Shown here: positions 6,612 through 27,145 of the stretch, piece after piece | How the letters are laid out: every line of letters begins with the position of its first letter | How positions within the stretch are numbered: the first letter of the stretch is position 1 | Source: a virus | DNA: 64,000 bases | Strand: one strand, 5' to 3' | Virus genome (UHGV): UHGV-0286546 | Notes under the pieces: model-generated | Told to the model about the DNA's origin: nothing | The model's input: the letters and a program-made list of their open reading frames with translations, nothing else | The model's database searches: none | Program-made: the position numbers and the translations under genes

Positions 6612-6896
6612 ATGTTAGAGTTAATGCCAACTGTAATTAAACCGGCTAAAGACATACAAGATTACTTAGAAAGAAAGCTTACAGTTGCTCTTACAGTTGA
6701 ATTTGAAGATAAGAGAGTATGTTATAAAACTCTTTCATCCACAAGTAGCTTCAGTTGTCAAATAGCAGGTTATATACAGGACTTCTTTCAAGAAACTTTA
6801 AGGATAGGTATTTTTAAAGCCTACAGTAGAGTTTATATAAATAACGATGATGTAGAATTATTACATACGATTTTAAGACTAGAAGGAAAACTGTAA
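6612..6896 (+). CDS. small protein, LxRIxGYL-box paralog family member
   Basis: Ends …ELLHTILRLEGKL. RBS aaaggagaatatctgATG. Confidence 0.65.
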   Translation: MLELMPTVIKPAKDIQDYLERKLTVALTVEFEDKRVCYKTLSSTSSFSCQIAGYIQDFFQETLRIGIFKAYSRVYINNDDVELLHTILRLEGKL

Positions 6897-6912
6897 TGAA
6901 AGGAGGTTTAGA

Positions 6913-7212
6913 ATGATAGAATGTAATATATTATGGGAATTGCTTGCAAAAGGATGTAACTACCCCTATATTACAATTACTATACCAGAAGAAAATAAAA
7001 CACGCATCTACATTACTAAACCTTATGATAGATATAGACCTATATCTAATAACATAGTAAACCAAGTAGTTGATACTATAGTAAATACATTTAAACAAGA
7101 AGGCATAAACGTAATCAAAACAAATCTTTCCACTGATTTTCATGAATATATAGTGGATGCTGATATAAACTTTCTTATTGGATTAATTAAAGTAAAAGGA
7201 GTATGTTCATGA
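6913..7212 (+). CDS. small protein, LxRIxGYL-box family (divergent: …FLIGLIKVKGVCS)
   Basis: RBS gaaaggaggtttagaATG. C-terminal variant of the family box. Confidence 0.6.
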   Translation: MIECNILWELLAKGCNYPYITITIPEENKTRIYITKPYDRYRPISNNIVNQVVDTIVNTFKQEGINVIKTNLSTDFHEYIVDADINFLIGLIKVKGVCS

Positions 7213-7499
7213 GGATAACTAGAGCATTTCAAAAGGAATTAAGACGCTTACTCCGAAGACATAACCTAGAAGCTTTCAGACTAAATGTAACAGACATAAC
7301 TGAAAACAATAAACCTAAAGTATATATCTACTTACTTATAGGTGATCTTCCTCACATTAGAATAAGTGATTATCTTTTATTACTAAGTGGAGTCTTTGAT
7401 AAATCAGGAGTTGAATACCAATATCTAAAGAATGTTTGTACCTTTAGTTTTAATCCAGAAGATATAGAAGTATTAACCGGATTTATTAGACTATATTAA
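7203..7499 (+). CDS. small protein, LxRIxGYL-box family (…VLTGFIRLY)
   Basis: RBS taaaggagtatgttcATG. Confidence 0.6.
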   Translation: MFMRITRAFQKELRRLLRRHNLEAFRLNVTDITENNKPKVYIYLLIGDLPHIRISDYLLLLSGVFDKSGVEYQYLKNVCTFSFNPEDIEVLTGFIRLY

Positions 7500-7514
7500 A
7501 AGGAGATAAATACT

Positions 7515-7880
7515 ATGTCAGACTTTAAATTGGAATTAATTAAACAAGGAGTTGTACTGGATAATATACCCGAAGAAATGTATTGGGCTTATGAAACTGT
7601 ACGTCAATCTGGTATATACAATATGTTAGTATTTCATCCTATTATGGGAAGATATGCAGAATCTAATAAAGATGAAGTATTAAAAGTTATGGATGATATA
7701 TATGTAAAGTACTGTGCTTATACAAATGCTAACATAGAAGAAAGTAAATACGTACATATGACTGTAGACCATGTACGAGCTATCCAAGAATGTTATAACT
7801 TATGTAAAGATTACTTTAAACCTGTACCAGAAGGAGTTATTAATCTTAAACGTAAAGTAAGTATAGATATTGAGTTTTGA
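7515..7880 (+). CDS. hypothetical protein
   Basis: RBS aaggagataaatactATG. Confidence 0.6.
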   Translation: MSDFKLELIKQGVVLDNIPEEMYWAYETVRQSGIYNMLVFHPIMGRYAESNKDEVLKVMDDIYVKYCAYTNANIEESKYVHMTVDHVRAIQECYNLCKDYFKPVPEGVINLKRKVSIDIEF

Positions 7881-8131
7881 TTAAAGGAGAATACAATATG
7901 CTTGTTAAATGTGAAATTATAGACAAAAGAATTAAAGACGGTTTCTTTTCTACTAAATATATTGTTACTGTTAGACCTATAGAAAAACTTAAACCAAAAG
8001 CTATAGAAGTAAAATTCAGTATGGAAAGTTATCATTACTGTCATATAGGAGATATCATTACTTTAACATTTAATGAAGAAGACGATGGTTTATACTATAT
8101 AGATCATGATGCAGGATTCTCAAAAAACTAA
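7877..8131 (+). CDS. hypothetical protein
   Basis: RBS aaaggagaatacaatATG. Overlaps the upstream stop (translational coupling). Confidence 0.55.
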   Translation: MIKGEYNMLVKCEIIDKRIKDGFFSTKYIVTVRPIEKLKPKAIEVKFSMESYHYCHIGDIITLTFNEEDDGLYYIDHDAGFSKN

Positions 8132-8141
8132 GGAGGTTAAC

Positions 8142-8414
8142 ATGAATACTAATTACTTAGATGAATTAGTTAAAATGCTATACCGTTACACAAATAACAT
8201 TTTTAGATATAAAGTAAGTATTGAAATAGATCAGGTATATATTTATCCTCGAAGTATTAATTATAGTAAACATACACTAGAAGCTCTATCTAATGTTAAA
8301 GACTTATTTGAAAAAACATTAAATAAAGAAATTAAAAAAGTACAAAACCAACTAATACTTAATCTACAGGATGTTATAGATTTATATACTATACTTAGAA
8401 TACAAGGAGTATAA
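8142..8414 (+). CDS. small protein, LxRIxGYL-box family (…DLYTILRIQGV)
   Basis: Start chosen at ATG 8142, after RBS ctaaggaggttaacATG. The ORF-track start at 8106 lacks an RBS. Confidence 0.6.
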   Translation: MNTNYLDELVKMLYRYTNNIFRYKVSIEIDQVYIYPRSINYSKHTLEALSNVKDLFEKTLNKEIKKVQNQLILNLQDVIDLYTILRIQGV

Positions 8415-8448
8415 ACATTATGACCAACCACAGTAAGGAGTACTACAT

Positions 8449-8757
8449 ATGGATAAAGAAATAATAGAAAACATATTAGACTTTGAAGTTATCACTATGA
8501 ACATATTTCAAAGTCATTTGTTTGTTTCAAATATAGAAAAACATGAAGGTATAGATCATGTATGTCTTGTTATTGACTATACCAAAGATAATGCTAAAGA
8601 AAAAATAGAAGGATTATTACAGAATGCAGGAGTACAGTATACCTATATAAAATCTGATTACTCTAATTTCTGCGGTAAAATACTATTTAAAGTATCTGAC
8701 CTAGAACTTTTAAATACTTATCTACGAATTAAATATGCAGACAGTTTAATATACTAA
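8449..8757 (+). CDS. small protein, LxRIxGYL-box family (…LLNTYLRIKYADSLIY)
   Basis: RBS agtaaggagtactacatATG. Confidence 0.6.
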   Translation: MDKEIIENILDFEVITMNIFQSHLFVSNIEKHEGIDHVCLVIDYTKDNAKEKIEGLLQNAGVQYTYIKSDYSNFCGKILFKVSDLELLNTYLRIKYADSLIY

Positions 8758-8776
8758 TATAAAGGAGGAATATACT

Positions 8777-9064
8777 ATGGCTATTTTACCACTATCAAAT
8801 TATATTAGAAGGTACTTAACACAAGGATCTCAATTGGCTTTTCATACTACTAAAGGAACTAAAATAATTGCTCCAGGTATGATATTTGGTTTACGTTTAT
8901 CTCATGATCGTAGAAAAATAAGATGTATTATAGAAGATGAAATCAATAAAGTCTTTACACTTACTAGAGAAGATTATCAATACTTATTAGATAATTCAAT
9001 TTCTATTCCTGAAGCAATCAAAGAAGGATACCTAACAGAAGATAAACTAACTATTTATGACTAA
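8777..9064 (+). CDS. hypothetical protein
   Basis: RBS taaaggaggaatatactATG. Confidence 0.6.
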   Translation: MAILPLSNYIRRYLTQGSQLAFHTTKGTKIIAPGMIFGLRLSHDRRKIRCIIEDEINKVFTLTREDYQYLLDNSISIPEAIKEGYLTEDKLTIYD

Positions 9065-9245
9065 CCCTTTCTTTTCTTCTGTTTTTCGTTTTTCTTTTTA
9101 TATATTTTTTCTTTTAACTTTTATTATTCTTTTCTTTAATATTTATTATTATTAATTTTAAATTTTATTATTTTTTTATTTTAACTTTAAATTTTTATTT
9201 TCATTTAACATTTAATATTTTTTATTATTACTTTTTTTAATACCC
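9064..9245. repeat. T/A low-complexity tract (poly-T / TTTTA-type microsatellite-like)
   Basis: About 180 bp with almost no G or C, made of ttttc/tttta/ttatt units. Followed by a purine-only tract at 9250-9300. Confidence 0.7.
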
Positions 9246-9350
9246 TTACTTTATTTAAGAGAAGTGAAAGAAGAAAACAAAGAAGAAAGCGAGAGAAGAT
9301 GCAAACACAGTTTAGAACCAGGTACTACGTAAAACCCAAATTATAAATAC

Positions 9351-9391
9351 CAAGTTACGCACAGCTTTTTGCAAGTTACGCACAGTTTTTT
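9351..9391 (+). repeat. direct repeat caagttacgcacag ×2, each followed by a T-run
   Basis: Exact 14-nt repeat at 9351-9364 and 9372-9385. Confidence 0.8.
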
Positions 9392-9429
9392 AATCTACTA
9401 ATAAAAAATATAAAAAATACTTAAAAAAT

Positions 9430-9461
9430 TGCTTTACATTATCCATTTATTATGACATAGT
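9430..9461 (+). promoter_or_regulatory. promoter-like element (aaaaattGCTTTACA … ATGACATAGTAT)
   Basis: TGCTTTACA core with an upstream A-tract. Also matches the T4 MotA-box-like TGCTTTA with TATTAT 11 nt downstream. Confidence 0.4.
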
Positions 9462-9719
9462 ATATTTGTTAGCTTGAGTGAATCATGTTAATTACATTTA
9501 AGTTTAAATTTGATCTTTATATTCCGAATTAATAAAGAATTGGTAAACATGTAGCCAGTTGTTTTGTTGATTTGTTAGTTGCTCCTCCTTGTTGGTTACC
9601 TCTTATTAGCCAACGCAAAGAATGTTATAATGCTTCTTATATGGAAGTTAACCATCTGCAACTGTGGAATGATTAGATGGAATTATAACGATAAGAGTTT
9701 TGTCATCTTTGGAAGTGTG

Positions 9720-9774
9720 TATTCGCATAATCTATCCTTTTATCCTTTTTTGGGCGCAAATAGATCTCAGAATA
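9720..9774. repeat. motif pair tattcgcataatct … agatctcagaata (copy 1)
   Basis: The same two motifs recur at 10248-10319, each copy followed by a T-run. Confidence 0.6.
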
Positions 9775-9928
9775 CACACTTCTTTTTTATTTATCTCTCG
9801 TTTATTCTCCCTCGTCTTGTTTAAAGCTCATACAGTAGCATTTCCTATAAAAGATATACAAACTACCAGTAAAATAAATTAGACTATCCAGAAGTCAAAA
9901 AACAAGGTATTTAAAAAGGTATAAAAAA

Positions 9929-10322: not shown

Positions 10323-11300
10323 TTATCCTTTATAATACTGAATTCCATACTTCTTTATAAATAACCCACATCTATTAACATCTGTATTAACTTCTGGTCC
10401 TACAAATATATAATCAGGAGCTTTAACATGTTCTTTAATAAGCCCTACCCATTCTATAAAGTTATAATACATATTTTCTGGTGTACCTTTCCATCTTTCT
10501 GTATTAGGACCAAAGGGAGGACATACAAATACTGTCTTATCTGTTTCTACTACTTGTGCTAATACATCTCTCTGTACCCATCCATAATATTTACAAAAGA
10601 TTGGATTAATGTCATAAGCTTCTATTTCTGCATCTATATTGTTTTTCTTATAATACTTTCTTGCTCCTTCTATTATACCACCAAATCCTGCCATAGGACA
10701 ATATATGCCTTTAGAAATATCTTTACCACTTTCTTCTAATATCCTTTCAAAAGCAGAAGGCATAAGAGCAGTTACCTTTGGAGCAATCTTAGCGATAGTA
10801 AACCTATGTAATACTTCTTGTAATAAACCTATATCATTATCCTTAAATACTTTTTCAACCCTATTACAAAACTCTTCATACTTATTACCTTTTATACTAT
10901 CATTAATTATCTTAAATAAGTTGTTGATAGCTTTTATTAAATATTCCGGTTTATTCCACGCTTCTTTAGGTGATAACTTACCAGATACATAACAGTCCCA
11001 AATAGGATGATCTGCTGGCCATTTTTTAGTACCCGGAAAAGCACTTCTTAAACACTTATTTAGTATATATTCATCAGTTAATCCAAATAAACTATTAACC
11101 TTTTCTAATTTTATTCCTTTTGTTTTACCGGTATGACTATCTCTCATCTTTTGCTTTGTTAATTCAGATACTACATACTTACCTTGTTGTTTCCTATAAG
11201 CACTGACACACCGACATGAACAAAACTGTCTACCTTTTCTAGCAGGATGAAATAACTTACCACAATACTTACATTCTATATCTTCTTTCTTATTCATCAT
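10323..11300 (-). CDS. Zn-ribbon + NUMOD-like DNA-binding N-domain fused to SAM-dependent DNA methyltransferase-like domain
   Basis: N-terminal CKYCGK…CSCRC zinc ribbon. NUMOD3-like TKQKMRDSHTGKTKG segment. Motif I-like IYCPMAGFGGIIEGA (FxGxG). Motif IV-like VFVCPPFGP ((S/D/C)PP(F/Y)), typical of N6A/N4C MTases. Confidence 0.55.
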   Translation of the reverse strand: MMNKKEDIECKYCGKLFHPARKGRQFCSCRCVSAYRKQQGKYVVSELTKQKMRDSHTGKTKGIKLEKVNSLFGLTDEYILNKCLRSAFPGTKKWPADHPIWDCYVSGKLSPKEAWNKPEYLIKAINNLFKIINDSIKGNKYEEFCNRVEKVFKDNDIGLLQEVLHRFTIAKIAPKVTALMPSAFERILEESGKDISKGIYCPMAGFGGIIEGARKYYKKNNIDAEIEAYDINPIFCKYYGWVQRDVLAQVVETDKTVFVCPPFGPNTERWKGTPENMYYNFIEWVGLIKEHVKAPDYIFVGPEVNTDVNRCGLFIKKYGIQYYKG

Positions 11301-11985
11301 TGTCTCCTTTCATGTCAGATCCATCCCAAGGTCTACTTGCATTTATATATGAATCTAATGGTCTAAGATTTTCTAATGCCCAACACTTTTTAAAATCTTC
11401 ACAATATATGTCTGTAATATTAAAAGTATTTACTGGTCTAATATGATCTATTTGCCAAGTTTCTCTTAGTCCTTTAGCTGTTAAACCAAGATTATCCCAA
11501 CTCATCCAATCTTCAAACTGACTCTCTAAATGCTTTTCTAAATCTTGTATACTATATCCTAATATATTACGTATACTATCATCTTTTTTATTTATAAGCG
11601 ATCTTCGTACTGCCGTCGATATAATGCATCTTAATTTATATCCAATATCACTAGCATACCTTTCATTTTTCCATTTACGATTATACTCGGCTTTTATCTT
11701 TCTTTGCTCTTCAGTCCTATTCTTATGCCATTTTGAAGCTTCTTTCTTATGTGTTTGGTAATATTCCTTTTTATAATCAGGGTTATTCGTTCTAAACCTT
11801 TCATTTTCTTTTTTAATTTTTTCAGGATACTTCATACAATACCTTTTACGTGCAGCTAATACCTTTTCCCTATTTGCTCTCTTCCATCTACGATTCCTTT
11901 CATTCTTTATTAATCTAGCTCTTTCTAAAGGATCTTCTACACTAATAAACATCTCTTCTATACCTTTATATAAATCATCAGTCAT
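11290..11985 (-). CDS. HNH homing-endonuclease-like protein
   Basis: C-terminal HNH core WQIDHIRPVNTF…CWALENLRPL. Highly basic Lys/Arg-rich N-half. Confidence 0.65.
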   Translation of the reverse strand: MTDDLYKGIEEMFISVEDPLERARLIKNERNRRWKRANREKVLAARKRYCMKYPEKIKKENERFRTNNPDYKKEYYQTHKKEASKWHKNRTEEQRKIKAEYNRKWKNERYASDIGYKLRCIISTAVRRSLINKKDDSIRNILGYSIQDLEKHLESQFEDWMSWDNLGLTAKGLRETWQIDHIRPVNTFNITDIYCEDFKKCWALENLRPLDSYINASRPWDGSDMKGDNDE

Positions 11986-12013
11986 TACAGCATCAATCCT
12001 TTAATCACTTCGT

Positions 12014-12041
12014 TAGTATATTAACATTATCTAGAATTACA
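12014..12041 (-). promoter_or_regulatory. candidate promoter for the HNH gene (TTGTAA-N16-TATACT on minus strand)
   Basis: Reverse complement of 12014-12041. The motif agtatattaaca is duplicated at 12050-12061. Confidence 0.3.
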
Positions 12042-12100
12042 ACTTTGTCAGTATATTAACAAAAGAAATTTCAAAAGTAAATACCTAACTTTCCAAAAGT

Positions 12101-12151
12101 ATTAAAAAGATAAATATAAAAGAAATCCCCCAGATTTTACTCCAGGGGATT
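12101..12151 (-). terminator. rho-independent terminator downstream of MCP gene
   Basis: Stem atcccc/ggggat (12125-12130 / 12145-12150) followed on the minus strand by a T-rich run. Confidence 0.5.
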
Positions 12152-12187
12152 CTTGATTCTACAATAATATCTTGCTAAATCAACAAC

Positions 12188-13771
12188 TTAGGCGTGAGCT
12201 TGGTTGAAGTTAGCAATAGCACCACGTACCAAGTACTCAGGCTTATTGATGAACAAATCATAGAAAGACATAGCGCCTTTGTGATTCTTCAAATTAGGAG
12301 CTTGGAAAGTAGGTGTGAAATAGAGCGGGATCCACTCAGCTAAAACAATTGCCGAATCACCTAACTGGAATCCTTTGAAACCGAAGACAACCTGATCAAC
12401 CGGTAATGTCTTAGTATAAGGAACAGCGATAACAGCAATAGTACCGTCACGCAATGTACCAGCTAAGTAAGGTCCAATCGGTTTCTTAGCTTCAGGAGCT
12501 GCTTTGAAACCTTCGATTTGTTCTACGATTGTTAAACCTTGACGAGCAGAAACAATCATGAATTCAACTGTACCACGACCAGCAACTTCTTGGATAATAC
12601 CACGAGCACTAGAAATAGTAGTTGTATAAGCAGAATATCTCTGTTGTAAGGTTAAGTTAGCACCGTTTGCAGCACAATCAAATGTCAAATCAGCGTTCGG
12701 AGTAGCAGCAGCATATACACTGTGGATCAATGACAAATCACGTTCCCAACGAATAGTACCAGCAATTTGGTTAGCAATCAATTCATCAGTGTCAATTGCT
12801 AAGTGAGCGTTCATTACCAAACCAGCTGCAACACTGTAAGAACTCATTAACGGGTGCTGCTTAGCTAAAATAGGCTGATTAGGAATATCGAACTGAATCT
12901 TACGAATCAAATCAACATCTGTTTCAACATCAACAGCAGCTTCGAAACTCAGCATAGCATTCTCAGCAATAGCATCAGCATACATAGTAGCATCCAATTT
13001 CAATGTAGCTACACCAGTCTGAGCATTAACTGTACCAGAAACACCACGACCAATTACATTGTATGCACCACTGTTAACACCATCCAACTGCGCAGAACCA
13101 TTACCATAGTCACGTGCAATCTCTTTACCTGCTAAACGAACGATGAACGAACCAGCACGTACTTTAACTGTAGCATCAGAAGGCAATGCAGCAGACGGAT
13201 TAGCAGTTACATCAGCAGTAGCCTGAACATCTGTATACCCAATGAACTCAGAAGAATACGTACCATCTGTCGGATTCTCAAATACAATGTCACCAGCTTC
13301 AACACCAGCAGCGTCTTGAGAATAACGTGTTTTGATGATGAAGATTTGGCCAGACTGACGATCTAAAGCTTGAATATCAGCAATGTAGTTTGCTACCATT
13401 TGCGGATAAAATACATTAACGATATCAACGACTTTAGGAGTCAAGCTTGCAACACCAGGGCTGAGCAAAGAAACAGCAGAAGTAGAAGCGTTACCGCCAA
13501 AATCTTCGTGCAGGATATTGCGACCTGTGTAAGGAGTATCTGGCTGTTGAGCGATGTATTCAGCAGTATTTTCTAAGAGCTGAACCATAGTAGCGGCTTG
13601 GTATTTAGCTTCTTTAGAGTCAGATTCCAGAGCTTTTACGAGAGCCGGGCAGCGTTTGCCGAGAGTAGATTCACTGAGAACTTCTGCAGCGTGAGCGATA
13701 CCTTTATTGATTCTTTCGCTACGGGCTTTAGCAACCAGTGACTTATTTTCAACTTTGGTTAAGATAGACAT
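12188..13771 (-). CDS. gp23: major capsid protein, T4 gp23-like
   Basis: 527 aa. Recognisable gp23-family segments (…PKVVDIVNVFYPQMVANYIADIQALDRQSGQIFIIKTRYS…, …GRGTVEFMIVSARQGLTIVEQ…, …AIVLAEWIPLYFTPT…). GC content clearly higher than surrounding genes, consistent with high expression. Confidence 0.85.
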   Translation of the reverse strand: MSILTKVENKSLVAKARSERINKGIAHAAEVLSESTLGKRCPALVKALESDSKEAKYQAATMVQLLENTAEYIAQQPDTPYTGRNILHEDFGGNASTSAVSLLSPGVASLTPKVVDIVNVFYPQMVANYIADIQALDRQSGQIFIIKTRYSQDAAGVEAGDIVFENPTDGTYSSEFIGYTDVQATADVTANPSAALPSDATVKVRAGSFIVRLAGKEIARDYGNGSAQLDGVNSGAYNVIGRGVSGTVNAQTGVATLKLDATMYADAIAENAMLSFEAAVDVETDVDLIRKIQFDIPNQPILAKQHPLMSSYSVAAGLVMNAHLAIDTDELIANQIAGTIRWERDLSLIHSVYAAATPNADLTFDCAANGANLTLQQRYSAYTTTISSARGIIQEVAGRGTVEFMIVSARQGLTIVEQIEGFKAAPEAKKPIGPYLAGTLRDGTIAVIAVPYTKTLPVDQVVFGFKGFQLGDSAIVLAEWIPLYFTPTFQAPNLKNHKGAMSFYDLFINKPEYLVRGAIANFNQAHA

Positions 13772-14269
13772 AGTAGTTTAATTTCCTATATTAAGTTTTA
13801 AGTTAAACGTTTATATATTTTTAGTTTTTTGTATAGATAGTATGTATTTATATCTATGTCCAGAGTAGTGTAAAGATCCCGTAGGATGGGAAACTTAGTA
13901 TTAGTTATTTAATTAGAACAGTATATTTATGATAAAGTAGTGATTTGGAAGAATTTTTTTGTAAATTTTTTTATTTTAGTTGTATATGTAGGTATATATG
14001 TGGAGTATTTGGGTTAATGTAAGTATGTTATCGTATATATGAGTAGTGTAGTATATAGTAGATAAAAGGTAACGTGATGAGATTGTATGTAGTTATATGG
14101 TGTATGTGTATATATAGGTTGTAGGAATTTTTAGGAAATGTGTCGGCGTAGGTAGATTGTGATATATAGTGGGTATGTATGATTGTAGATAATTGGTTTT
14201 ACGTTTACTGTATTACATGGTATAGTAATGGTAATAATGAAATGAATGATATGAGAGGATGAGCTACGT

Positions 14270-18303: not shown

Positions 18304-18304
18304 A

Positions 18305-19092: not shown

Positions 19093-19407
19093 ATGCTGTC
19101 TGTTGATCTAAACGAGTTAAAGAGTGTAATAGAATCTGACATTGGTGCATTTTTCAAAAGTAATAACTTAGAAGCACCTTTACTTGTATTTTTAAATCAT
19201 GCTGATTCTGAAGATGTCTTATATTTTTCAGTGCTAATTGGAATAGCTGCCCGCAAACAACTCGATGAATATATACAAACTACTTACAGAGCATCTAAAA
19301 TATCAGACTTTAAAGGTGAACAAAATGTTCATTATGGTTCCTACGTTTTAACTAAAGATACAATAGAAGATATGATAACTATATTTAGGATAAAAGGTTA
19401 TTTGTAA
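19093..19407 (+). CDS. small protein, LxRIxGYL-box family (…MITIFRIKGYL)
   Basis: RBS gaaaggttgtagttaatATG. Confidence 0.6.
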   Translation: MLSVDLNELKSVIESDIGAFFKSNNLEAPLLVFLNHADSEDVLYFSVLIGIAARKQLDEYIQTTYRASKISDFKGEQNVHYGSYVLTKDTIEDMITIFRIKGYL

Positions 19408-19477
19408 TACATAGAGAATTATAACTCTTATCGCTTAAAATAGGCTCGGTTATTATTCCAGACCTTTATTTATATCT

Positions 19478-19508
19478 GTTTTACACTATTTTATTTACAT
19501 AGTACAAT
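19478..19508 (+). promoter_or_regulatory. sigma70-like promoter (cTGTTTTACA-N17-TACAAT)
   Basis: TTTACA at 19480-19485 and TACAAT at 19503-19508. Confidence 0.5.
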
Positions 19509-19539: not shown

Positions 19540-19917
19540 ATGAATGAGAATGTTTTTGCGTATATTAATATTGATGATTATCGTTTAGATTTGTCTAGTA
19601 TTGAATTAGACAATGAAATAATAAGTATACCCGAATCAATAATAACTAGTAGTACATTTATTAATACTCTTCACAATAAGTTAAAGAGTTGTTTTAAGAA
19701 TGTTTATGCAGTGCGTGCGCTTCGAACTTTTCCTATACCACAAGGCCATGAACTGGCAATATATCCTAAGTTTCAATATGTGATAAATGTAAACTTTGAG
19801 TATAAGGATTTAAACGATGAATTGTTTACTTTATATAAGATTGATCGCAAATCTGCTTTAATTTTTTTACTTAATGAGGTAAAAAAGATTATTGAAGAGT
19901 TTGAAAATATTATATAA
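19540..19917 (+). CDS. family variant (…ELFTLYKIDRKSAL…)
   Basis: TLY(K/R)ID box subfamily. Confidence 0.6.
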   Translation: MNENVFAYINIDDYRLDLSSIELDNEIISIPESIITSSTFINTLHNKLKSCFKNVYAVRALRTFPIPQGHELAIYPKFQYVINVNFEYKDLNDELFTLYKIDRKSALIFLLNEVKKIIEEFENII

Positions 19918-19920
19918 AGG

Positions 19921-20274
19921 TTGGCAATGCTAGAAAAGTTAAAAATTGGTATTCATGTATATCCTGCAGCTGATTTTGAAGTGTATAGTACTAAAATAAC
20001 TGTATATTTAGATTCTTTTTTGTCAAATTCAGAAGAACTAATAAAAGATAGCTTGATTGCTCAACTTGCAAAATATTATATAGGTGATGATTTTTCCGAT
20101 AATATAATTAGTTATATTTGGTTTAAAGGAAGTACATTTGATGTATCTTTTGACATAAAAGTAGTTGAGCATCAATTACTTGAAGAGTACAGAACCTTAT
20201 ATAGAATAAATAAAAAGACAGTCTGTGATTATTTTATTGACAGTATTAAAAAATTGGACAAGTGTACGTTATGA
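19921..20274 (+). CDS. family variant (…EYRTLYRINKKTV…)
   Basis: TLYRI box subfamily. Confidence 0.6.
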   Translation: MAMLEKLKIGIHVYPAADFEVYSTKITVYLDSFLSNSEELIKDSLIAQLAKYYIGDDFSDNIISYIWFKGSTFDVSFDIKVVEHQLLEEYRTLYRINKKTVCDYFIDSIKKLDKCTL

Positions 20275-20621
20275 GTTTAATAATAAATGTAAAACTCTTT
20301 GATCGTGATACTGAAGCTGATTCGATATCTTCAAAACAGATATACGAAAACTCTTTTGTTGCTCCAGAAGAATTAATTTCAGATAGAAGTTTGGATACTA
20401 TTCGAGAGATAGTCAAAATCAAATTACAAGAATATTTCAAAGACTTTTGTTTTTCGTGGGTATATTGGATAAAAGATAAATATTGTGAAGACAATAGATA
20501 CAAGTATGAAGATCAAGTAATCTCAATTAGTCTTTCGATATATGGTGAACTTATTAAAGGTGATTATAATACATTATATAGGATTGACAAAAAAAAGTAT
20601 GTGTATCTATATAATGAATAA
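20262..20621 (+). CDS. family variant (…DYNTLYRIDKKKY…)
   Basis: TLYRID box subfamily. Confidence 0.6.
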   Translation: MYVMSLIINVKLFDRDTEADSISSKQIYENSFVAPEELISDRSLDTIREIVKIKLQEYFKDFCFSWVYWIKDKYCEDNRYKYEDQVISISLSIYGELIKGDYNTLYRIDKKKYVYLYNE

Positions 20622-20659
20622 ATTAAAAGAATTAGAATTAGTAAAAGGATGACAACGTA

Positions 20660-20998
20660 ATGTATACTCATACTACTAATATCTTTTTTAACCTTGTGAC
20701 AGAGCAGAATGAAATTATTAAATATAATGTCGTTTTATCTTTGCATAGTCGAACTCCAAAAATAAAATCTCAAAAGGTATTTGATTTGATTAAAAATAAA
20801 TTAAAGGCGTTTTTTATTAATATTCCTAATATGACAATTTATCATAAAAATGAATATTTAACGATTTCGGCTTTGGAACAAGAATGTGATATTTTAGTTA
20901 TAATTAAAGTCATTGCGATAGATTTAAAAGAACATTATAGGACTTTGTTGAGAATCAGTCCTAGATCTCTAACAGAATGTTTCGTAGCGGCGTTATAA
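20660..20998 (+). CDS. family variant (…HYRTLLRISPRSL…)
   Basis: TLxRI box. Confidence 0.55.
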   Translation: MYTHTTNIFFNLVTEQNEIIKYNVVLSLHSRTPKIKSQKVFDLIKNKLKAFFINIPNMTIYHKNEYLTISALEQECDILVIIKVIAIDLKEHYRTLLRISPRSLTECFVAAL

Positions 20999-21043
20999 CA
21001 GAATGCAGTGAAAAATTTAGTACAATAAAGTGAAAGTAAAACA

Positions 21044-21388
21044 ATGAATCCTGAATACAAACTTTTTATCCAGTTAAATATGTATTGCACAAACACAGTC
21101 GAAGCAGTCATGAAAAATATAACAATGATTATACCTTATATGAATACGCGTACTTTAGCTATCAAAATTGAATCTATTATAAATAAATATTTTATAAGCC
21201 AAAGATTGAGTCAAATAAAATACACATATCATCCTTTTAAAACAGATATTGGAAATGAGATTATCGTTTATGTAAATATGCGTGAAAAAGATTTGTTAAA
21301 TGATTATAAAACTTTGCAGCGAATCAAAGAGGATTATGTATTATGTAACATTAAATCAGAAATAGAAGCGTGTTTAACTCTGTTTTAG
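21044..21388 (+). CDS. family variant (…DYKTLQRIKEDYV…)
   Basis: TLxRI box. Confidence 0.55.
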   Translation: MNPEYKLFIQLNMYCTNTVEAVMKNITMIIPYMNTRTLAIKIESIINKYFISQRLSQIKYTYHPFKTDIGNEIIVYVNMREKDLLNDYKTLQRIKEDYVLCNIKSEIEACLTLF

Positions 21389-21470
21389 TATTTTATTAAC
21401 TATTTCTGTTTTACTTTTCTTATAAAATAGCATATACTTATAATATATAAAGAAGAAAAGGACAAAAACA

Positions 21471-21812
21471 ATGAATATGCTAAAACATTTTACAGATGCA
21501 ACAGCTCATGCAAAGGCGCTGAAGATTATATTGGGATTAGATTCGCCGGTACATATCTTTGGACAATACGATAGACAAGAGAAAAAAGAAATTTCTTATA
21601 TTATTTGTTTTGATTTGCCTTGTAATAAGTCTGAAGCACCTTATTTTAAGAATTATGTGTTGTCTAATTTAGTTCAATTCGGAATGACAGCGAAACGAGT
21701 ATTTTTTACAAAGAATAAATTAGTTTTAACTGTTCCTTTTGAAGCTTTACTTGAATTATCACAACACATAAAAATGATGGTAAATTCTACAAGCAATAGG
21801 GAATTTAAATGA
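21471..21812 (+). CDS. hypothetical protein
   Basis: ORF after a promoter-like ctgTTTTACT…TTATAAT at about 21401-21440. Confidence 0.55.
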   Translation: MNMLKHFTDATAHAKALKIILGLDSPVHIFGQYDRQEKKEISYIICFDLPCNKSEAPYFKNYVLSNLVQFGMTAKRVFFTKNKLVLTVPFEALLELSQHIKMMVNSTSNREFK

Positions 21813-22129
21813 TAGAAACTTGTGAAACGATTTCTGCCCTTTTACTCAAATACTTTTTAAACAATAATAGAGAATTGTATTTATTTAAGCCGGTATTTGA
21901 AATAAACCCAAAGGAGCTTTTGAATCACGCTAAAAAATTAATAAAAGAGTTGGGGCTAAATAATTATATAGATGTTTGCTTACACGAAGTTATTATTGAA
22001 CTATCTGGAATACAAATGGAAAAACAATCTACTGAAATGGTACATTTTAGTGTGAAAAAAGATAAGGAACATATGGCAGATACTATTTTAGGTTTACTCT
22101 ATATTAAATTAGGAAAACAGTATGATTGA
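21809..22129 (+). CDS. hypothetical protein (C-terminus …ILGLLYIKLGKQYD, loose family resemblance)
   Basis: ORF overlapping the upstream stop. Confidence 0.5.
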   Translation: MIETCETISALLLKYFLNNNRELYLFKPVFEINPKELLNHAKKLIKELGLNNYIDVCLHEVIIELSGIQMEKQSTEMVHFSVKKDKEHMADTILGLLYIKLGKQYD

Positions 22130-22433
22130 CGAACGAGACATATTGGATTTTTGTCGGCTATATAACGAAAAACTTCATGACAATACTGGATTGAAGGTAA
22201 TGTGTTTTTGTGAAGAATCAGATGTTGTTCATGTTGGTTATTTTTTAGGTCATATCTTTAGTGATACTCCTATTGCAAAAGCTTTTTATAAAGAAATAGT
22301 AGAAGCAATGACAGTCAAATTAAAAGAATTGAATATTAATTATAAAATTGCTTTAGATGGTAAATTAATTGGTGTAATAATAAATGAAAATGCGTTTTAT
22401 GATTTTTTGACGTATCTTAAAATTCTTAACTGA
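22122..22433 (+). CDS. hypothetical protein (C-terminus …FYDFLTYLKILN, loose family resemblance)
   Basis: ORF overlapping the upstream stop. Confidence 0.5.
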   Translation: MIDERDILDFCRLYNEKLHDNTGLKVMCFCEESDVVHVGYFLGHIFSDTPIAKAFYKEIVEAMTVKLKELNINYKIALDGKLIGVIINENAFYDFLTYLKILN

Positions 22434-22443
22434 AGAGGTTTAA

Positions 22444-23022
22444 ATGTACAATTCACACCTAATCACATTTTGTGTTTATAGACGTAATTCTGTTGTTTTT
22501 AAATACACAACATCAGATCGTTTTATACTACCGATTGCTGATTTATTTGATAATAAGGGGATTGTACTTTACGATGATATTTATTTTAAATTGAGTGATT
22601 TAAATAAATGTTTTAAATTAAGCAGTGATAAAACAAATAACCAAACTATAAAAAATGAATTACTTTCACTATTTAAATCACGAATTAGACATGCAAAACA
22701 ATTTAGTAAGCAAGTTCAAGTACACCCAATAATCGATATTTGTTATGCGGACGATAAGGATATTATTTCATTTATACGTTATATCAAAAAATGTGATTTG
22801 AGAAAGTTTATAGCATACCTTGCATCTACGTTTAAACTAAATAAATATCAATCCTTTTCATTATACAAAGCAGGTTTAAATAAAAAACAAGTTACTTTGA
22901 GTTTACGTACATTATTTGATGATGATACTACGGAATTATATCGAGTGATTAATGAAAAAGATATTTATAAAATGATATATGACTCGGTAAAAGGATATAC
23001 AAAGGAAGAAAATGAATCGTAA
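22444..23022 (+). CDS. hypothetical protein (192 aa)
   Basis: ORF with RBS gaagaggtttaaATG. Confidence 0.55.
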   Translation: MYNSHLITFCVYRRNSVVFKYTTSDRFILPIADLFDNKGIVLYDDIYFKLSDLNKCFKLSSDKTNNQTIKNELLSLFKSRIRHAKQFSKQVQVHPIIDICYADDKDIISFIRYIKKCDLRKFIAYLASTFKLNKYQSFSLYKAGLNKKQVTLSLRTLFDDDTTELYRVINEKDIYKMIYDSVKGYTKEENES

Positions 23023-23281
23023 TATACCTGAATATATAAAAGATATATTTGTAAAAACAATACATTATGAAAAGTCACAGTGTATATTTAAATACCGTCA
23101 TAAGCAAAAATTATTTTCTGTTGAATTTCCCGGTACCTTGTATACATTTGAATGGTTTTCTATTAAGCAGATGTTAGCGCTGACTGGGTATAAAGTAATG
23201 TATAGGTATAACACTGTTTATATTTATGACGTTGATGATTTTGAATTATTGCACGGAGTATTGAAATTACATGTTAGTTAG
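23012..23281 (+). CDS. small protein, LxRIxGYL-box family (divergent: …ELLHGVLKLHVS)
   Basis: C-terminal box variant. Confidence 0.5.
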   Translation: MNRNIPEYIKDIFVKTIHYEKSQCIFKYRHKQKLFSVEFPGTLYTFEWFSIKQMLALTGYKVMYRYNTVYIYDVDDFELLHGVLKLHVS

Positions 23282-23576
23282 TTATAAAGAAAAAGTAGCT
23301 TATTACAATTATATAAAAGATAAATTATGCAAAGACCTCAACTTGGAGATAATAGAGTTTACATGTGTTCGGGGTGAAGTTTTAATATCTTCTCTTGATC
23401 CTAGTACTTATACTAATTATGAGATCAAAGACACAATTAGAAATAATATATATGAATTAAATCTTATTGGTTATATTGTGGTTTCTATGGGTTATGACAA
23501 TAGATATATTAGTGTTAAAGTTTATGATCCTGCTCCAGAATTTATCACACTTCTAAGAATAGAAGGATATTTGTGA
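23271..23576 (+). CDS. small protein, LxRIxGYL-box family (…FITLLRIEGYL)
   Basis: Canonical C-terminal box. Confidence 0.6.
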   Translation: MLVSYKEKVAYYNYIKDKLCKDLNLEIIEFTCVRGEVLISSLDPSTYTNYEIKDTIRNNIYELNLIGYIVVSMGYDNRYISVKVYDPAPEFITLLRIEGYL

Positions 23577-24065
23577 ATGTATAAGTTCAATGAAAAAATA
23601 TATCTTGCAGTTAGTGGAAATCATAGAAATAAGGTTTTACATTATTTAAAAAATAGAGCAGAAATGTATAAAATCTATGTTCACAGGGATTATTTTAAAG
23701 ATGAAGAAATAATTACAATTAAACCGTGGGGTAAATCTGGTAGTGGAATGCGTTATGGTTTATATCAGGATTTAGATAGATATTCATTTTTAGCTTTAAA
23801 GAAAATGATGAAGTATCAAGGAAAAAGAATCATAGAGATAGTTCTAAAACCAGAGATAGTAGTAGCTTTATATTTAAATTACGGGGTAAAAATACACACA
23901 GTAGAAGGAGCGTTAATTGAATATATAAAGCAGATTTTTAAAAAAGATGTTTATGTAACTCATTCTTGGGAAGTTTGTACGTATTCGATTCATGAAACAA
24001 AGTATATATGTACAGAAACAAACACATTAGAAAAAGTTGAAAAACAATATATTGAAATTTTATAA
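23577..24065 (+). CDS. hypothetical protein (162 aa)
   Basis: ORF directly abutting the upstream stop. Confidence 0.55.
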   Translation: MYKFNEKIYLAVSGNHRNKVLHYLKNRAEMYKIYVHRDYFKDEEIITIKPWGKSGSGMRYGLYQDLDRYSFLALKKMMKYQGKRIIEIVLKPEIVVALYLNYGVKIHTVEGALIEYIKQIFKKDVYVTHSWEVCTYSIHETKYICTETNTLEKVEKQYIEIL

Positions 24066-24078
24066 AGGAAAAAGAAAA

Positions 24079-24432
24079 ATGATCTTAAATAAAGGAAAAT
24101 ATACAAACATTAAAGTTGCTTTGGCAAATACTAGTATTATTAATAAAGATCCTCAGATTACTCTTTATTCAGATGATGCAAAGACCATTATTGGTAAAGC
24201 TAAAGTCGTAGATGAAAATCCTTTAACCTTAGATATTGAAATCGAAAAGAATTTAGAATTTTCTACTCCATATTTTAGAATTGTACCTATGAATTATACT
24301 CAACAAAATGGCTATATTATTTCTATACAATCTCTTAAATTAGTAGCTGACATTTCAGAATATACTCCTTTTGTTTTGTCTATTGAAGATAGCTTTAAAG
24401 CAAAGAGAACTACTAGAAAAGCTAGCAAATAA
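24079..24432 (+). CDS. hypothetical protein
   Basis: Start chosen at ATG 24079 after RBS taaaggaaaaagaaaaATG. The ORF-track start at 24037 overlaps the previous gene. Confidence 0.55.
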   Translation: MILNKGKYTNIKVALANTSIINKDPQITLYSDDAKTIIGKAKVVDENPLTLDIEIEKNLEFSTPYFRIVPMNYTQQNGYIISIQSLKLVADISEYTPFVLSIEDSFKAKRTTRKASK

Positions 24433-24434
24433 CT

Positions 24435-24465
24435 GTTTTACAAAATAGACAAAATATTGTAAATT
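24435..24465 (+). promoter_or_regulatory. promoter-like (cTGTTTTACA-N17-TAAATT)
   Basis: Recurrent -35 motif with a weak -10. Confidence 0.35.
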
Positions 24466-24520
24466 ATAAATATAAAGTTAATTGACCCCAGATATTATTA
24501 TTTAGTATTTGGGGTATTTT

Positions 24521-25147
24521 ATGCAAAGGAATCAAGAAATGAAAAAATTACCCAGCGAATATTTATTTGTTGCAAAAGATGGTAAAACATATTATAAAGC
24601 ATATCAAAAACATAAAAAAGAAATTGAACTTAATGGATATATATTAGCTTCGATTCCGGTTGTATTTGATAAAGAGGCTACTACAGAAGTATTGTTTAAA
24701 ATCATAGAAGATAATCCGCACCTAAAAGATTCTATGTTTTATTTTGATGAGTTTAATAAAGAATTTAATCAAGAAAGCGAAGATACTTATAAAGGTAAAT
24801 TAAACTTTTATTGGTGGGGCATTGAAGTTGAAGATAAAGTTATTGATACAATGATTCCTAAAATGGAAGTAGATATGATTGACGAAACAGGCGAGCGTTA
24901 TAGTATTGAATTTTTATCTGTAAATAAATTGAAAAATCTTAAAATCAACGTTGATCCTACTTTCAATATTTATGACAAAGAAAATAAACCGGTATATACT
25001 CTTGTTAGTTATCCGACGCTGTTCCATATTTTGTATGGATTTTTCTGGGAAGTAAGTTTTTTCGGTAATCCAGAAGATAGAGAAAATAAATCAAATGAAT
25101 TACAAGAAGCGTTAAAAGGTATTAAGAAGGAATTCGACATTGAATAA
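24521..25147 (+). CDS. hypothetical protein (about 209 aa)
   Basis: ATG at 24521. The track start at 24509 is a TTG. Preceded by the stem-loop accccagat/atttggggt at 24485-24515. Confidence 0.55.
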   Translation: MQRNQEMKKLPSEYLFVAKDGKTYYKAYQKHKKEIELNGYILASIPVVFDKEATTEVLFKIIEDNPHLKDSMFYFDEFNKEFNQESEDTYKGKLNFYWWGIEVEDKVIDTMIPKMEVDMIDETGERYSIEFLSVNKLKNLKINVDPTFNIYDKENKPVYTLVSYPTLFHILYGFFWEVSFFGNPEDRENKSNELQEALKGIKKEFDIE

Positions 25148-25526
25148 AAATAATGTATTATTAGTTGAAGATAATTTAAGTGTTGCAGCAATTTTTAAAA
25201 TATTAGCAAAAAGAATGGGTATTAACTTAGTCCATCAAACTTCGGCAGAGCGTACTTTAGAATTAGAAGATACTCCACATGCACCTATTTCTTTGGCAAA
25301 TCTTATTATATTGGATTTTGATTTAGTAGGTGAAAATACTCTACCTATTTTACAATATATTAAAGATAATAATATAAATACTCCTGTTATTATGAATAGT
25401 GCAAACCCTAGTATAAAGGATACTATTGATAAAAACGGTTTTACAGATATAATAAAAGAATATAAAGATAAAAATTGTTCATTACAAGAAACACAGGATA
25501 TAATTTTAAAATACCTCGAGGCATAA
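25140..25526 (+). CDS. stand-alone CheY-like receiver (REC) domain protein
   Basis: VLLVEDN (acidic pocket), IILDFDL (candidate phospho-acceptor Asp), TPVIMNSA and a later Lys: the pattern of a response-regulator receiver. Apparent TTG start overlapping the upstream stop. Confidence 0.5.
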   Translation: MNKNNVLLVEDNLSVAAIFKILAKRMGINLVHQTSAERTLELEDTPHAPISLANLIILDFDLVGENTLPILQYIKDNNINTPVIMNSANPSIKDTIDKNGFTDIIKEYKDKNCSLQETQDIILKYLEA

Positions 25527-25532
25527 GTTTAA

Positions 25533-25718
25533 ATGATTAGTAAAGAAATTGATGAGAGACAAGAAGCACAACAGCTTAATGACTTTTATAATCAAGATGC
25601 AGATTTTATTTTGACAAAAGAAGAAAAGATTGCTAGAATAAAAAAGAACAAAGAGAATTACTATAAAGAACGATTAGCTAAGATGGTATTTGATTCGAAA
25701 GGTAGACAAGGTAAATGA
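25533..25718 (+). CDS. hypothetical small protein
   Basis: ORF with RBS gaggcataagtttaaATG. Confidence 0.45.
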   Translation: MISKEIDERQEAQQLNDFYNQDADFILTKEEKIARIKKNKENYYKERLAKMVFDSKGRQGK

Positions 25719-25871
25719 CTACGGAATTAGAAGCTAAGTTAATAGACCAAAACGAAAAGTTAACTAAAACTTTATTACAAATCAAAACTATAATTCAAAA
25801 CGGTAATAGAATTGATTTGGAAATGCTTAAAAAAGAAATAACATTAATAATCGATCAAGAGTTGAAACTAG

Positions 25872-26177
25872 ATGGTAAATAATTTTGTAATCGAAATCGA
25901 AAAAGAATTAAAAAAACAAATAATATCTGAATTGATATTTAATACAGATAGACTTTTGGATAATGAACCTTTTTTTATGAAAGGTACTGATATCGAATTT
26001 GTAGATAATTCCTGCGTTTTTACTTTCTTTACGTTTTCTACAATAAAAAATATTGTCTTAGAGCTTTTTAAAAATAGACTTAAAAATGTAGAGATCAAAG
26101 ATAGTGCAAATACAATTACTCTTTGCGGTGTTTCTTCTTATGATGATTTAATAGGATTATTAACTATATGCAAATAA
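25872..26177 (+). CDS. hypothetical protein (C-terminus …DDLIGLLTICK, loose family resemblance)
   Basis: ORF only. Confidence 0.5.
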   Translation: MVNNFVIEIEKELKKQIISELIFNTDRLLDNEPFFMKGTDIEFVDNSCVFTFFTFSTIKNIVLELFKNRLKNVEIKDSANTITLCGVSSYDDLIGLLTICK

Positions 26178-26437
26178 GCAATAAACTTATTATGGAATTA
26201 TCTAAAACCGCTTTGAAATATGCCATACTCTTAGATATTTCATACAATAATAATATCTTAAGTTTTAAAATCAATTCAAAAAGTTATGATTGGGGAATAG
26301 GTAAGTTTTTATCTAGTTGTTTTACAGTTTTATCAAAATATTATAATATTACATATAATAAAGGTTGTTTTACAGTTAACGATCTTACAAATGAAACTCT
26401 ATTTATTAAAAGGCTGAAAAAAATTGACAATCGATGA
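26168..26437 (+). CDS. hypothetical protein
   Basis: ORF overlapping the upstream gene. Confidence 0.5.
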   Translation: MQISNKLIMELSKTALKYAILLDISYNNNILSFKINSKSYDWGIGKFLSSCFTVLSKYYNITYNKGCFTVNDLTNETLFIKRLKKIDNR

Positions 26438-26750
26438 AGAAACATTTGAAACTGTGTTTAGAAAGTTTTGGTATCCTTTTTCACTCTATTTGTTGACTCT
26501 CACATTTAAAGAAACAACAAAAGCACTATTTATTATTTGTAAATTCGAAGATGAGCGTATTGAATCTTCTAGTATAAATACAATTCAAAAGGCTTTTCAT
26601 GTTGCAGTTTTAAAAGACCATTTAAATAAATATCCAGAATTAAAAGATCAAATAAGAATAATAAATGAGTATGTAAACAAGAATAGTAAAATTACATTTG
26701 AAATTAAAGATCCTGACTTATTTTATGCATATATGAGATTGAAAGTATAA
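26424..26750 (+). CDS. small protein, family-like C-terminus (…LFYAYMRLKV)
   Basis: ORF only. Confidence 0.5.
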   Translation: MTIDEETFETVFRKFWYPFSLYLLTLTFKETTKALFIICKFEDERIESSSINTIQKAFHVAVLKDHLNKYPELKDQIRIINEYVNKNSKITFEIKDPDLFYAYMRLKV

Positions 26751-26752
26751 AT

Positions 26753-27145
26753 ATGATTTTTATAGCAGATGTTATCAGAGATAATAAGAAAGTTGAAGTA
26801 ACCGGTCCCTTTGAAAAAGTTATCAAACAATGCATGCCAGATGTAGATCCTAAAGAATATGTACGTGGATTTTTTATATTTTTAAATTACTTTAATATTA
26901 CGGAAAATTCGTCTGGGCATGCTTATTGGTATTGTAATGATTCAGGCAGAAGATATGTTACTTTAGATTTCAGTGACATTTATCATAATGCTTTATATGA
27001 AATTGCTAGTTTTAAATATTTTAAAGATGCCGGAATAAAACCACAGTATACTACAATCTATAATAAAACACGTTATAGTTTAACCATTCCGGTACAAGAA
27101 GATTGGGAAGTTTTTCTTGGATATATAAAGATTACAAACTATTAA
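26753..27145 (+). CDS. small protein, family-like C-terminus (…FLGYIKITNY)
   Basis: ORF only. Confidence 0.5.
   Translation: MIFIADVIRDNKKVEVTGPFEKVIKQCMPDVDPKEYVRGFFIFLNYFNITENSSGHAYWYCNDSGRRYVTLDFSDIYHNALYEIASFKYFKDAGIKPQYTTIYNKTRYSLTIPVQEDWEVFLGYIKITNY

Follow-up and report, generated by a model that had tools for sequence, protein, structure and literature searches.

A clade-restricted family of small proteins with a conserved C-terminal box in gene arrays of an uncultured T4-like gut jumbo phage

Members of the family and the C-terminal box

The window analysed here, a stretch of 64,000 nt from the virus genome UHGV-0286546, carries 28 plus-strand open reading frames (ORFs) of 84–131 aa and one more of 147 aa between 6.6 and 27.1 kb. 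An earlier note on this DNA had described a tandem family of at least 25 small proteins with diverged N-termini and a common C-terminal box, and all of the C-terminal sequences quoted there are indeed present in the translations. As BLASTP links within the window are weak (the best pairs are 37009/37328 at 8.5e-8 and 6612/8106 at 8.5e-5; ORFs are named here by their first position), we used leave-one-out profiles, scoring each ORF on a profile built from the others against 1280 shuffled decoys. Iteration of a hidden Markov model (HMM) within the window alone is uninformative, because the seed sequences match by construction. The leave-one-out procedure supports 12 ORFs with an hhRIxGYL-type end (subfamily A, p <= 0.03) and seven with a DYxTLYRIDKK-type box (subfamily B, p <= 0.004), so that 19 ORFs score above the shuffled decoys. 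The ORF 37328, with a leave-one-out p = 0.18 on its own, is the eighth B member by its BLASTP match to 37009 (E = 8.5e-8). An iterative HMM search, run with decoys on 764 ORFs drawn from the window and from 22 related loci, was stable at the same 12 + 8 window members, with zero decoys at E <= 1e-3. Hence the demonstrable members in the window number 20 (12 A and 8 B), of which 18 lie at 6.6–27.1 kb and two at 37.0–37.6 kb; the family proposed earlier stands, while its count of at least 25 shrinks to the 20 supported by leave-one-out profiles, BLASTP and the iterative search. All members are on the plus strand, and dN/dS in the list is the ratio of nonsynonymous to synonymous substitution rates.

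Subfamily A
6612–6896, plus strand: 94 aa, ending ...LLHTILRLEGKL; leave-one-out p = 0 of 1280 decoys; BLASTP 8.5e-5 to 8106; dN/dS 0.34
6913–7212, plus strand: 99 aa, ending ...FLIGLIKVKGVCS; p = 0.0008; 15 orthologue clusters; dN/dS 0.26; the last codons contain the Shine–Dalgarno (SD) sequence (AAAGGAG) and the start of the next gene
7203–7499, plus strand: 98 aa, ending ...VLTGFIRLY, without the glycine tail; p = 0.032; cluster P0074 of the exhaustive search described below
8106–8414, plus strand: ending ...LYTILRIQGV; leave-one-out p = 0.026; the true start is likely at 8142, because the orthologue P0076 begins MDTNYLDEL
8449–8757, plus strand: 102 aa, ...LLNTYLRIKYADSLIY; leave-one-out p = 0; not in the relative L005
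14270–14605, plus strand: 111 aa, ...IYSLLRIKGYTMN; forms a one-gene unit, with its promoter at 14195 and a terminator-like hairpin at 14636–14671; a 90-aa truncated version in L005
17998–18303, plus strand: 101 aa, ...IKVLIRLLGYM; p = 0.007; not in the relatives L003 and L004
18305–18607, plus strand: 100 aa, ...MEVILMIKGYL; the subfamily A protein modelled by AlphaFold2
19093–19407, plus strand: 104 aa, ...MITIFRIKGYL; p = 0.0008; dN/dS 0.18
23012–23281, plus strand: 89 aa, ...ELLHGVLKLHVS; p = 0.0008; BLASTP 2.6e-4 to 6612
23271–23576, plus strand: 101 aa, ...FITLLRIEGYL; p = 0; dN/dS 0.14
26753–27145, plus strand: 130 aa with a longer N-terminus, ...WEVFLGYIKITNY; p = 0; cluster P0004

Subfamily B
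18607–19050, plus strand: 147 aa, ...DYNTLYRIDER...; C-terminal transmembrane segment GMVYVFILIAIVILLIFGL (hydropathy scan); p = 0
19540–19917, plus strand: 125 aa, ...ELFTLYKIDRK...; p = 0.0023; many orthologues
19921–20274, plus strand: ...EYRTLYRINKK...; the subfamily B protein modelled by AlphaFold2; likely start at 19927 (MLEKLK opens the orthologues)
20262–20621, plus strand: 119 aa, ...DYNTLYRIDKK...; p = 0; box DNA 71% identical to that of 18607 (repeat D7)
20660–20998, plus strand: 112 aa, ...HYRTLLRISPR...; leave-one-out p = 0
21044–21388, plus strand: 114 aa, ...DYKTLQRIKED...; leave-one-out p = 0
37009–37335, plus strand, outside the main array: 108 aa, ...DYKTLLKIYNED...; leave-one-out p = 0.0039
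37328–37612, plus strand: 94 aa, ...EFITLLRLYNGD...; BLASTP 8.5e-8 to 37009

Eight further small ORFs (21471, 21809, 22122, 25872, 26168, 26424, 22444 and 38478), probably included in the count of the earlier note, are not supported, with leave-one-out p = 0.07–0.93, and compared by hhalign with the family profiles they scored no better than unrelated ORFs; orthologue profiles, being shallow (effective number of sequences about 1.1), added little power for them. Two of the eight are borderline.

22122–22433, plus strand: borderline candidate, 103 aa, ...FYDFLTYLKILN; not significant (hhalign against A P = 0.024 over 56 co-linear columns; score 9.4 on the position-specific scoring matrix (PSSM) of the box); by eye, its hydrophobicity pattern would fit alpha-beta-beta-alpha-beta-beta-alpha
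26424–26750, plus strand: borderline candidate, 108 aa, ...DLFYAYMRLKV; leave-one-out p = 0.20; hhalign against the enlarged A profile P = 7.5e-3, at the box
21471–21812 and 21809–22129, plus strand: unsupported, leave-one-out p = 0.25 and 0.07; hhalign values like those of unrelated ORFs
25872–26177 and 26168–26437, plus strand: unsupported, leave-one-out p = 0.15 and 0.26
38478–38960, plus strand: unsupported, 160 aa, internal ...LLLATIRLQY...; p = 0.24; hhalign P = 0.085 and 0.19

Proteins of subfamily A end in (D/E)xhExhxThhRIxGYL, and in subfamily B the DYxTLYRIDKK box is followed by one extra helix. Among the 12 A paralogues, the mean pairwise BLOSUM62 score reaches 1.11 in the C-terminal helix and 1.23 in the tail, as opposed to −0.4 to 0.1 in all other elements, which bears out the contrast between diverged N-termini and a conserved box. 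Outside the box, the proteins have diverged so far that they are hardly recognisable as relatives. AlphaFold2 predicts an alpha-beta-beta-alpha-beta-beta-alpha arrangement for the A protein 18305 (predicted local distance difference test, pLDDT, 86.1; predicted template modelling score, pTM, 0.81) and beta-beta-alpha-beta-beta-alpha-alpha for the B protein 19921 (pLDDT 85.8, pTM 0.77). Both models contain two beta-hairpins with a helix between them; the A model has an extra N-terminal helix, and the B model a second C-terminal one. In both, the box forms the helix that follows strand 4, and not the fixed C-terminal strand that had been expected.

The box contains an N-cap (S/T/D/N-x-x-E), hydrophobic residues at i, i+3, i+6/7 and i+9, a small T/G, a conserved R/K and a glycine C-cap. 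Given what is generally known of helix capping, it reads as a complete capped amphipathic helix, and its conservation can therefore be explained by packing of the fold without any common partner. As the constant element of the scaffold, this helix most likely packs on the sheet.

A different explanation would make the box a docking or oligomerisation motif common to all members, with the helix and the GY tail binding one partner or each other and the variable part bringing different activities. It is suggested by the conservation of the box far above that of the other core elements (1.1–1.2 against −0.4 to 0.1), by conserved charged positions on the non-hydrophobic face (E88 and R/K95 in the numbering of 18305), and by the near-invariance of the box across fast-evolving orthologues. 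Box-like stretches in the larger proteins 33408 (...FEDICTYYRIQGANLY), 14783 (...MFTTLCRIMD) and the 220-aa L003_12244 (ending ...SVYTMLKIKGY) point the same way, but these matches are not significant after multiple testing. Moreover, the pattern is that expected of a capped amphipathic core helix (N-cap, i/i+3/i+7, small T/G, C-cap glycine), the tail is absent or altered in four of the 12 A members and replaced by another helix in B, and no candidate partner was found. We consider docking rather doubtful, although it is the main alternative to the preferred reading given below. The common partner or oligomerisation surface proposed earlier is in keeping with the constancy of the box, but packing of a capped helix could account for that constancy without a shared partner.

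The stretches in the two larger window proteins, which are otherwise unrelated, lie at residues 38–55 of 33408–33971 and residues 193–215 of 14783–15526 (DVDMFTTLCRIMD); these proteins are the top non-members by the A-box PSSM and hhalign. In addition, the tail codons K/E/L-G-Y/V (AAR/GAA GGN ...) double as the SD of the gene that follows, which overlaps or abuts, in 6913, 17998, 18305 and 23271, so that the C-terminal tail is under dual constraint in part of the family.

Several simpler explanations of the box were rejected. The K/E-G tail does supply the SD of 7203, 18305, 18607 and 23577, but it is more than an embedded SD, as the glycine is also kept where the next gene is distant (14270, 19093, 8106) and in distant relatives. 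A T4 prohead-protease site (L/I-x-E) does not fit, since its register differs among members, and neither does a sliding-clamp-binding C-terminal peptide, as the box bears no likeness to the known motifs. Finally, a DNA-level recombination site is contradicted by the box DNA, which is only about 71% identical even in the closest pair.

Subfamilies and the search for known relatives

Direct comparison of the A and B profiles by hhalign gives a probability of 0.8–4% over only 16–19 columns, that is, over the box alone. More distant relatives were reached through the capsid protein (58–85% identity). These have A-like members and a third subfamily, C, ending ...SIHINLKKEYINKIEELETLFKIQGIL. The C profile matches A at P = 6e-4 to 3e-3 over 45–68 co-linear columns and B at P = 2e-4 to 8e-4 over strand 4 and the box. 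Hence grouping the two box types together, as had been done in the earlier note, is reasonable, with subfamily C of the sister phages bridging A and B. The best match of the A-box PSSM is the protein's own box in six of the eight B members, and a B-trained PSSM finds the box in seven of the 12 A members, the proteins not being independent.

A, B and C probably constitute a single superfamily, although this is unproven. Alternatively, A and B could be separate 12- and 8-member families, their boxes being alike by convergence or by chance in a proteome rich in I, L, K, Y and N. The weak direct match (P = 0.07–0.01 over 16–19 columns), the lack of any common protein in the two iterative profiles and the mostly non-significant individual cross-family box scores would agree with that. 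Against it are the matches of subfamily C to each at P ~1e-3, the position of the box after strand 4 in both models, the PSSM cross-hits on the proteins' own boxes and the interleaving of A and B members within the same operons. Separate origins thus seem unlikely.

None of the curated collections contains the family. Searches of Pfam-A, PHROGs v4 and NCBIfam 20 yielded no match near threshold, the best E-values of 0.002–0.1 coming from single members and different families, and no curated family was matched by two members; sequence searches of the Protein Data Bank (PDB) gave no matches either. The statement of the earlier note that the box cannot be assigned to a known family therefore holds, and the ACT-domain or ribosomal-domain match that it had named as a refutation was looked for and did not appear, nor does either model have a beta-alpha-beta-beta-alpha-beta fold. 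With the A profile, HMMER was run exhaustively against 1.84 billion representative proteins; its 12 hits correspond exactly to the 12 A paralogue clusters of this lineage, and word-indexed searches with the A, B and C profiles returned the same phage clade only. Among viral proteins, the best structural match, with a template modelling (TM) score of 0.71 (E = 2e-4), is to an unnamed protein of 95 aa. Literature searches found no description of the family or of the phage clade. We conclude that the family is an undescribed, clade-restricted and unusually large paralogous set of cytoplasmic single-domain alpha/beta proteins of 90–130 aa.

At the level of folds, the order of elements in subfamily A is that of the LAGLIDADG homing-endonuclease domain, and the B model might be related to the beta-grasp fold (ubiquitin-like, protein G/L, C-terminal domain of superantigens). 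One could accordingly imagine the members as small nucleic-acid-binding regulators that tune phage or host expression through the exposed face of the sheet, in the manner of LAGLIDADG/WhiA or SUI1/eIF1 proteins, the A element order being that of one LAGLIDADG domain. However, there is no Pfam match, and the A alignment lacks a LAGLIDADG motif with an acidic residue at the end of helix 1, the mean BLOSUM62 score of that helix being −0.01. The members are also mostly acidic (median isoelectric point, pI, 5.7 in A and 5.0 in B; range 4.8 to 9.2, with net charges from −7 to +4), and the family has no conserved basic surface or catalytic motif. Such a role is therefore very improbable. Among the members, a membrane segment is present only in 18607.

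Promoters, turnover and gene surroundings

A generic scan for sigma-70 promoters and terminators was not above shuffles (140 sigma-70 promoters against 134.5 expected). By contrast, the specific element TGTTTTAC occurs 24 times in the window against 5.3 expected, and none of 100 shuffles reaches 24. With its one-base variants, it lies in intergenic DNA 39–96 nt upstream of the first gene of nearly every plus-strand block (373 nt upstream for the block starting at 6612), usually followed after ~18 nt by TAnnnT, sometimes with TG just before it. The co-oriented early-type promoters of the earlier note are thus borne out for this element and not for sigma-70 promoters in general. The promoter-like sequences of the array are as follows.

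6239–6270, plus strand: GGCTTTAC, 18 nt, TATGAT; upstream of the block 6413/6612–9064
14195–14226, plus strand: GGTTTTAC, 18 nt, TATAGT; 75 nt upstream of 14270
17350–17381, plus strand: upstream of the block 17389–19407 (three A members and one B)
19477–19508, plus strand: TGTTTTAC, 18 nt, TACAAT; upstream of the five-gene B block 19540–21388
21407–21438, plus strand: upstream of the block 21471–24432, with a terminator-like hairpin at 24485–24515
24434–24465, plus strand: upstream of the block 24509–27145

T4 early promoters consist of a −35 element, TGn and a −10 element (PMC2988021). The layout of TGTTTTAC and TAnnnT resembles this architecture and so supports, but does not prove, early transcription by the host polymerase. 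The element is also found in intergenic gaps of the minus-strand half (52485–52492 and 52764–52771, minus strand), co-oriented with the genes there, and is therefore a genome-wide signal rather than one specific to the family array. As to translation, an SD-like core precedes 15 of the 20 members, and many genes overlap or are separated by gaps of at most 16 nt; strong ribosome-binding sites and translational coupling, claimed for most copies, are thus largely confirmed.

By the NG86 method, dN/dS against the most divergent orthologue is 0.14–0.56 for members with enough substitutions and 0.05–0.15 for core genes. The family ORFs are therefore real protein-coding genes under purifying but relaxed selection. 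Proteins flanking the array are 95–99% identical to those of close relatives, while the family orthologues are 66–93% identical. The gene content varies as well: L003 and L004 lack 17998 and have two other A paralogues at its spot, along with extra B-like ORFs and a 220-aa protein ending in an A-type box, and L005 lacks 8449 and carries a truncated orthologue of 14270. Copy number thus does vary among related phages by gains, losses and replacements, a check that the earlier note had proposed. Within the window, the paralogues are 15–30% identical to each other, and the duplications are therefore old rather than recent. The array had been called diversifying, which agrees with its fast turnover; yet the gene-wide dN/dS is below 1, which indicates fast evolution and gene turnover, positive selection not being demonstrated. 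In L004 (ERR13991539_467, 6008–9893), an insert of ~4 kb separates the orthologues of 19093 and 19540 and encodes a 375-aa RVT_1 reverse transcriptase and ORFs that are not in the window, one of them with a B-like box (KPLYRISI...).

The phage itself is an uncultured T4-like gut jumbo phage of ~240 kb with ~28% G+C. This follows from the gp23-type capsid protein together with the orthologue-bearing contigs from gut metagenomes, which are 235–245 kb long. A T4 gp23-type major capsid protein of 527 aa is encoded at 12188–13771 (minus strand). It hits phrog_138 at 4e-26 and shares 34% identity with the capsid protein of a Pseudomonas phage, and PF07068 is found in its orthologues. G+C content across the window is 26–38%, and when the 22-kb region was compared by megablast with 50,697 phage records, no nucleotide match emerged. 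Some fragments were binned as 'Succinivibrionaceae bacterium', a label that does not establish the host.

The array is surrounded by non-structural genes, namely those for the anaerobic ribonucleotide reductase NrdD, a metallophosphoesterase and a receiver-domain protein, and by a predicted M16 peptidase (Pfam matches on its orthologue). Translations read by eye point to putative dCMP-deaminase-like, ligase-like and Hsp20-like ORFs as further neighbours. A receiver-like domain of the stand-alone response-regulator type lies at 25140–25526 inside the early block; its PF00072 score is 28.8 bits against a cutoff of 30.2, and the ORF is kept in relatives with dN/dS 0.08.

The notion that the family consists of virion or assembly components related to tail-terminator proteins has little to recommend it. 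The members come in 20 copies that are variably present in near-identical phages, have −35/−10 promoters and non-structural neighbours, and match no structural family of PHROGs; the combination of a structural match, a place in the tail gene module and a single copy that would mark a lambda gpU-like tail terminator was not found. Of all the explanations considered, this is the least credible.

Within the plus-strand early arrays (region 10323–13771), the gp23-type capsid gene stands alone on the minus strand. Its neighbours are a NinG-like ORF (10323–11300) and a 231-aa ORF (11290–11985), both of which are replaced in L005 (13212–14543) by a 443-aa NUMOD3 endonuclease; this replacement suggests turnover of homing endonucleases next to the capsid gene. 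The motif TATAAATA is found 75 nt upstream of the capsid start (13845–13852, minus strand), but in this AT-rich DNA it is so frequent (33 occurrences against 22 expected) that it cannot mark late promoters.

Between 9064 and 10323, 1.26 kb are devoid of a convincing ORF (an 81-aa ORF at 9579 has dN/dS 0.65). Within this segment, a 43-nt repeat family occurs in four T-rich copies, three at 22-nt spacing (9103–9236), and the direct repeat AAGTTACGCACAG in two (9352–9385). Possible roles are those of a regulatory region, an origin or an RNA of unknown kind; no tRNA genes or Rfam families were found in the window, this segment included. Further along, the 285-aa protein at 16428–17285 has three internal repeats of ~56 aa (GxxVNGWLLEDTG...), seen in the DNA at 168-nt spacing (16651, 16819, 16987), and matches nothing in Pfam or PHROGs. 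Finally, two proteins of ~245 aa (5486–6223 and, on the minus strand, 53734–54465) are distant paralogues (BLASTP 1e-6, 18% identity over 130 aa) encoded on opposite strands with 48 kb between them.

Possible function and comparison with known systems

Many of the small early genes of large phages have no known function, and such regions are the source of several of the best-studied counter-defence and host-shutoff proteins. Plastic and hyperplastic regions of T4-type phages reportedly consist of arrays of small early ORFs between core genes. The arrays described here resemble them in their small, co-oriented and tightly packed or overlapping ORFs, in promoters of the −35/(TGn)/−10 type, in a content that varies among close relatives whose core genes are near-identical, and in the gp23-type capsid protein (PF07068). 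They differ in being made up mostly of one paralogous superfamily of ~20 members, while those of T4 are mostly unrelated ORFans, in the upstream promoter element, which here is TGTTTTAC, and in belonging to a lineage without a match among the phage records searched. The combination of promoter-driven small co-oriented ORFs, a gp23-type core and a content variable among L003, L004 and L005 is that of a T4-type early accessory array.

In the Bacillus phage SPO1, the host-takeover module reportedly groups 24 small genes that are expressed early and have strong promoters and ribosome-binding sites. It is similar in being a dense cluster of such genes with strong expression signals, which are presumed to redirect the host. 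However, the SPO1 genes are not mutual paralogues and several have demonstrated toxic or host-shutoff activity, whereas the present family is known from its genes alone. Gene 'accordions', in which counter-defence genes are reportedly amplified in tandem and then diverge (poxvirus K3L; T4 dmd-tifA), share with it the tandem paralogues and the copy-number differences among very close relatives. Accordions are tied to counter-defence, and here, at 15–30% identity, the duplications are old.

Our preferred reading is a clade-restricted scaffold family of early accessory host-interaction proteins with diversified surfaces. The family would have grown by repeated tandem duplication within operons under a recurrent promoter with −35-like and −10-like elements; its products would act soon after infection as accessory factors, each dispensable singly, and each protein would bind a different host or host-defence component by its diverged surface. 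We regard this reading as about evenly balanced, and its host-interaction part as falling at or a little below that mark. A role in anti-defence or host takeover may be proposed from the gene context.

A number of points weigh against the preferred reading. No homologues or structural neighbours indicate a target or an activity, so that its functional part would derive from gene context and from the analogy with T4-type early accessory genes. Early timing is suggested by promoter architecture alone. The A and B profiles match at P = 0.07, or 0.01 with enlarged profiles, which is not significant, and their closest PDB folds differ, being a two-layer alpha/beta sandwich for A and a beta-grasp-like fold for B. 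Both AlphaFold2 models come from shallow alignments (26 and 20 sequences). Moreover, the box is conserved far above other core elements, exposed charged positions included, for which a purely structural role is an incomplete explanation.

A narrower version of the host-interaction reading would treat the family as a repertoire of single-domain binders on a minimal scaffold. The constant helix would nucleate the fold or dock to a host hub, while the hairpins and the other helices would diversify so as to neutralise different proteins of host defence or housekeeping; copies that come, go or are exchanged between near-identical phages would then be the footprint of a continuing arms race. This is rather doubtful. 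If true, the repertoire would represent a previously unknown superfamily for anti-defence or host takeover, with subfamilies A, B and C spread over a clade of gut jumbo phages.

As a type of feature the array is familiar, since it corresponds to the plastic early region of T4-type phages and families with fast turnover are common in big phages, but the family itself is new, and ~20 diverged copies on one scaffold make it unusually large for a phage. It is also tractable, since its members can be aligned, are confidently modelled and can be compared in near-identical genomes with different copy content. Should the paralogues not bind separate host targets, the family would amount to another ORFan expansion confined to one clade. 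If they do, it would provide a panel for finding new host vulnerabilities and defence systems in poorly studied gut bacteria.

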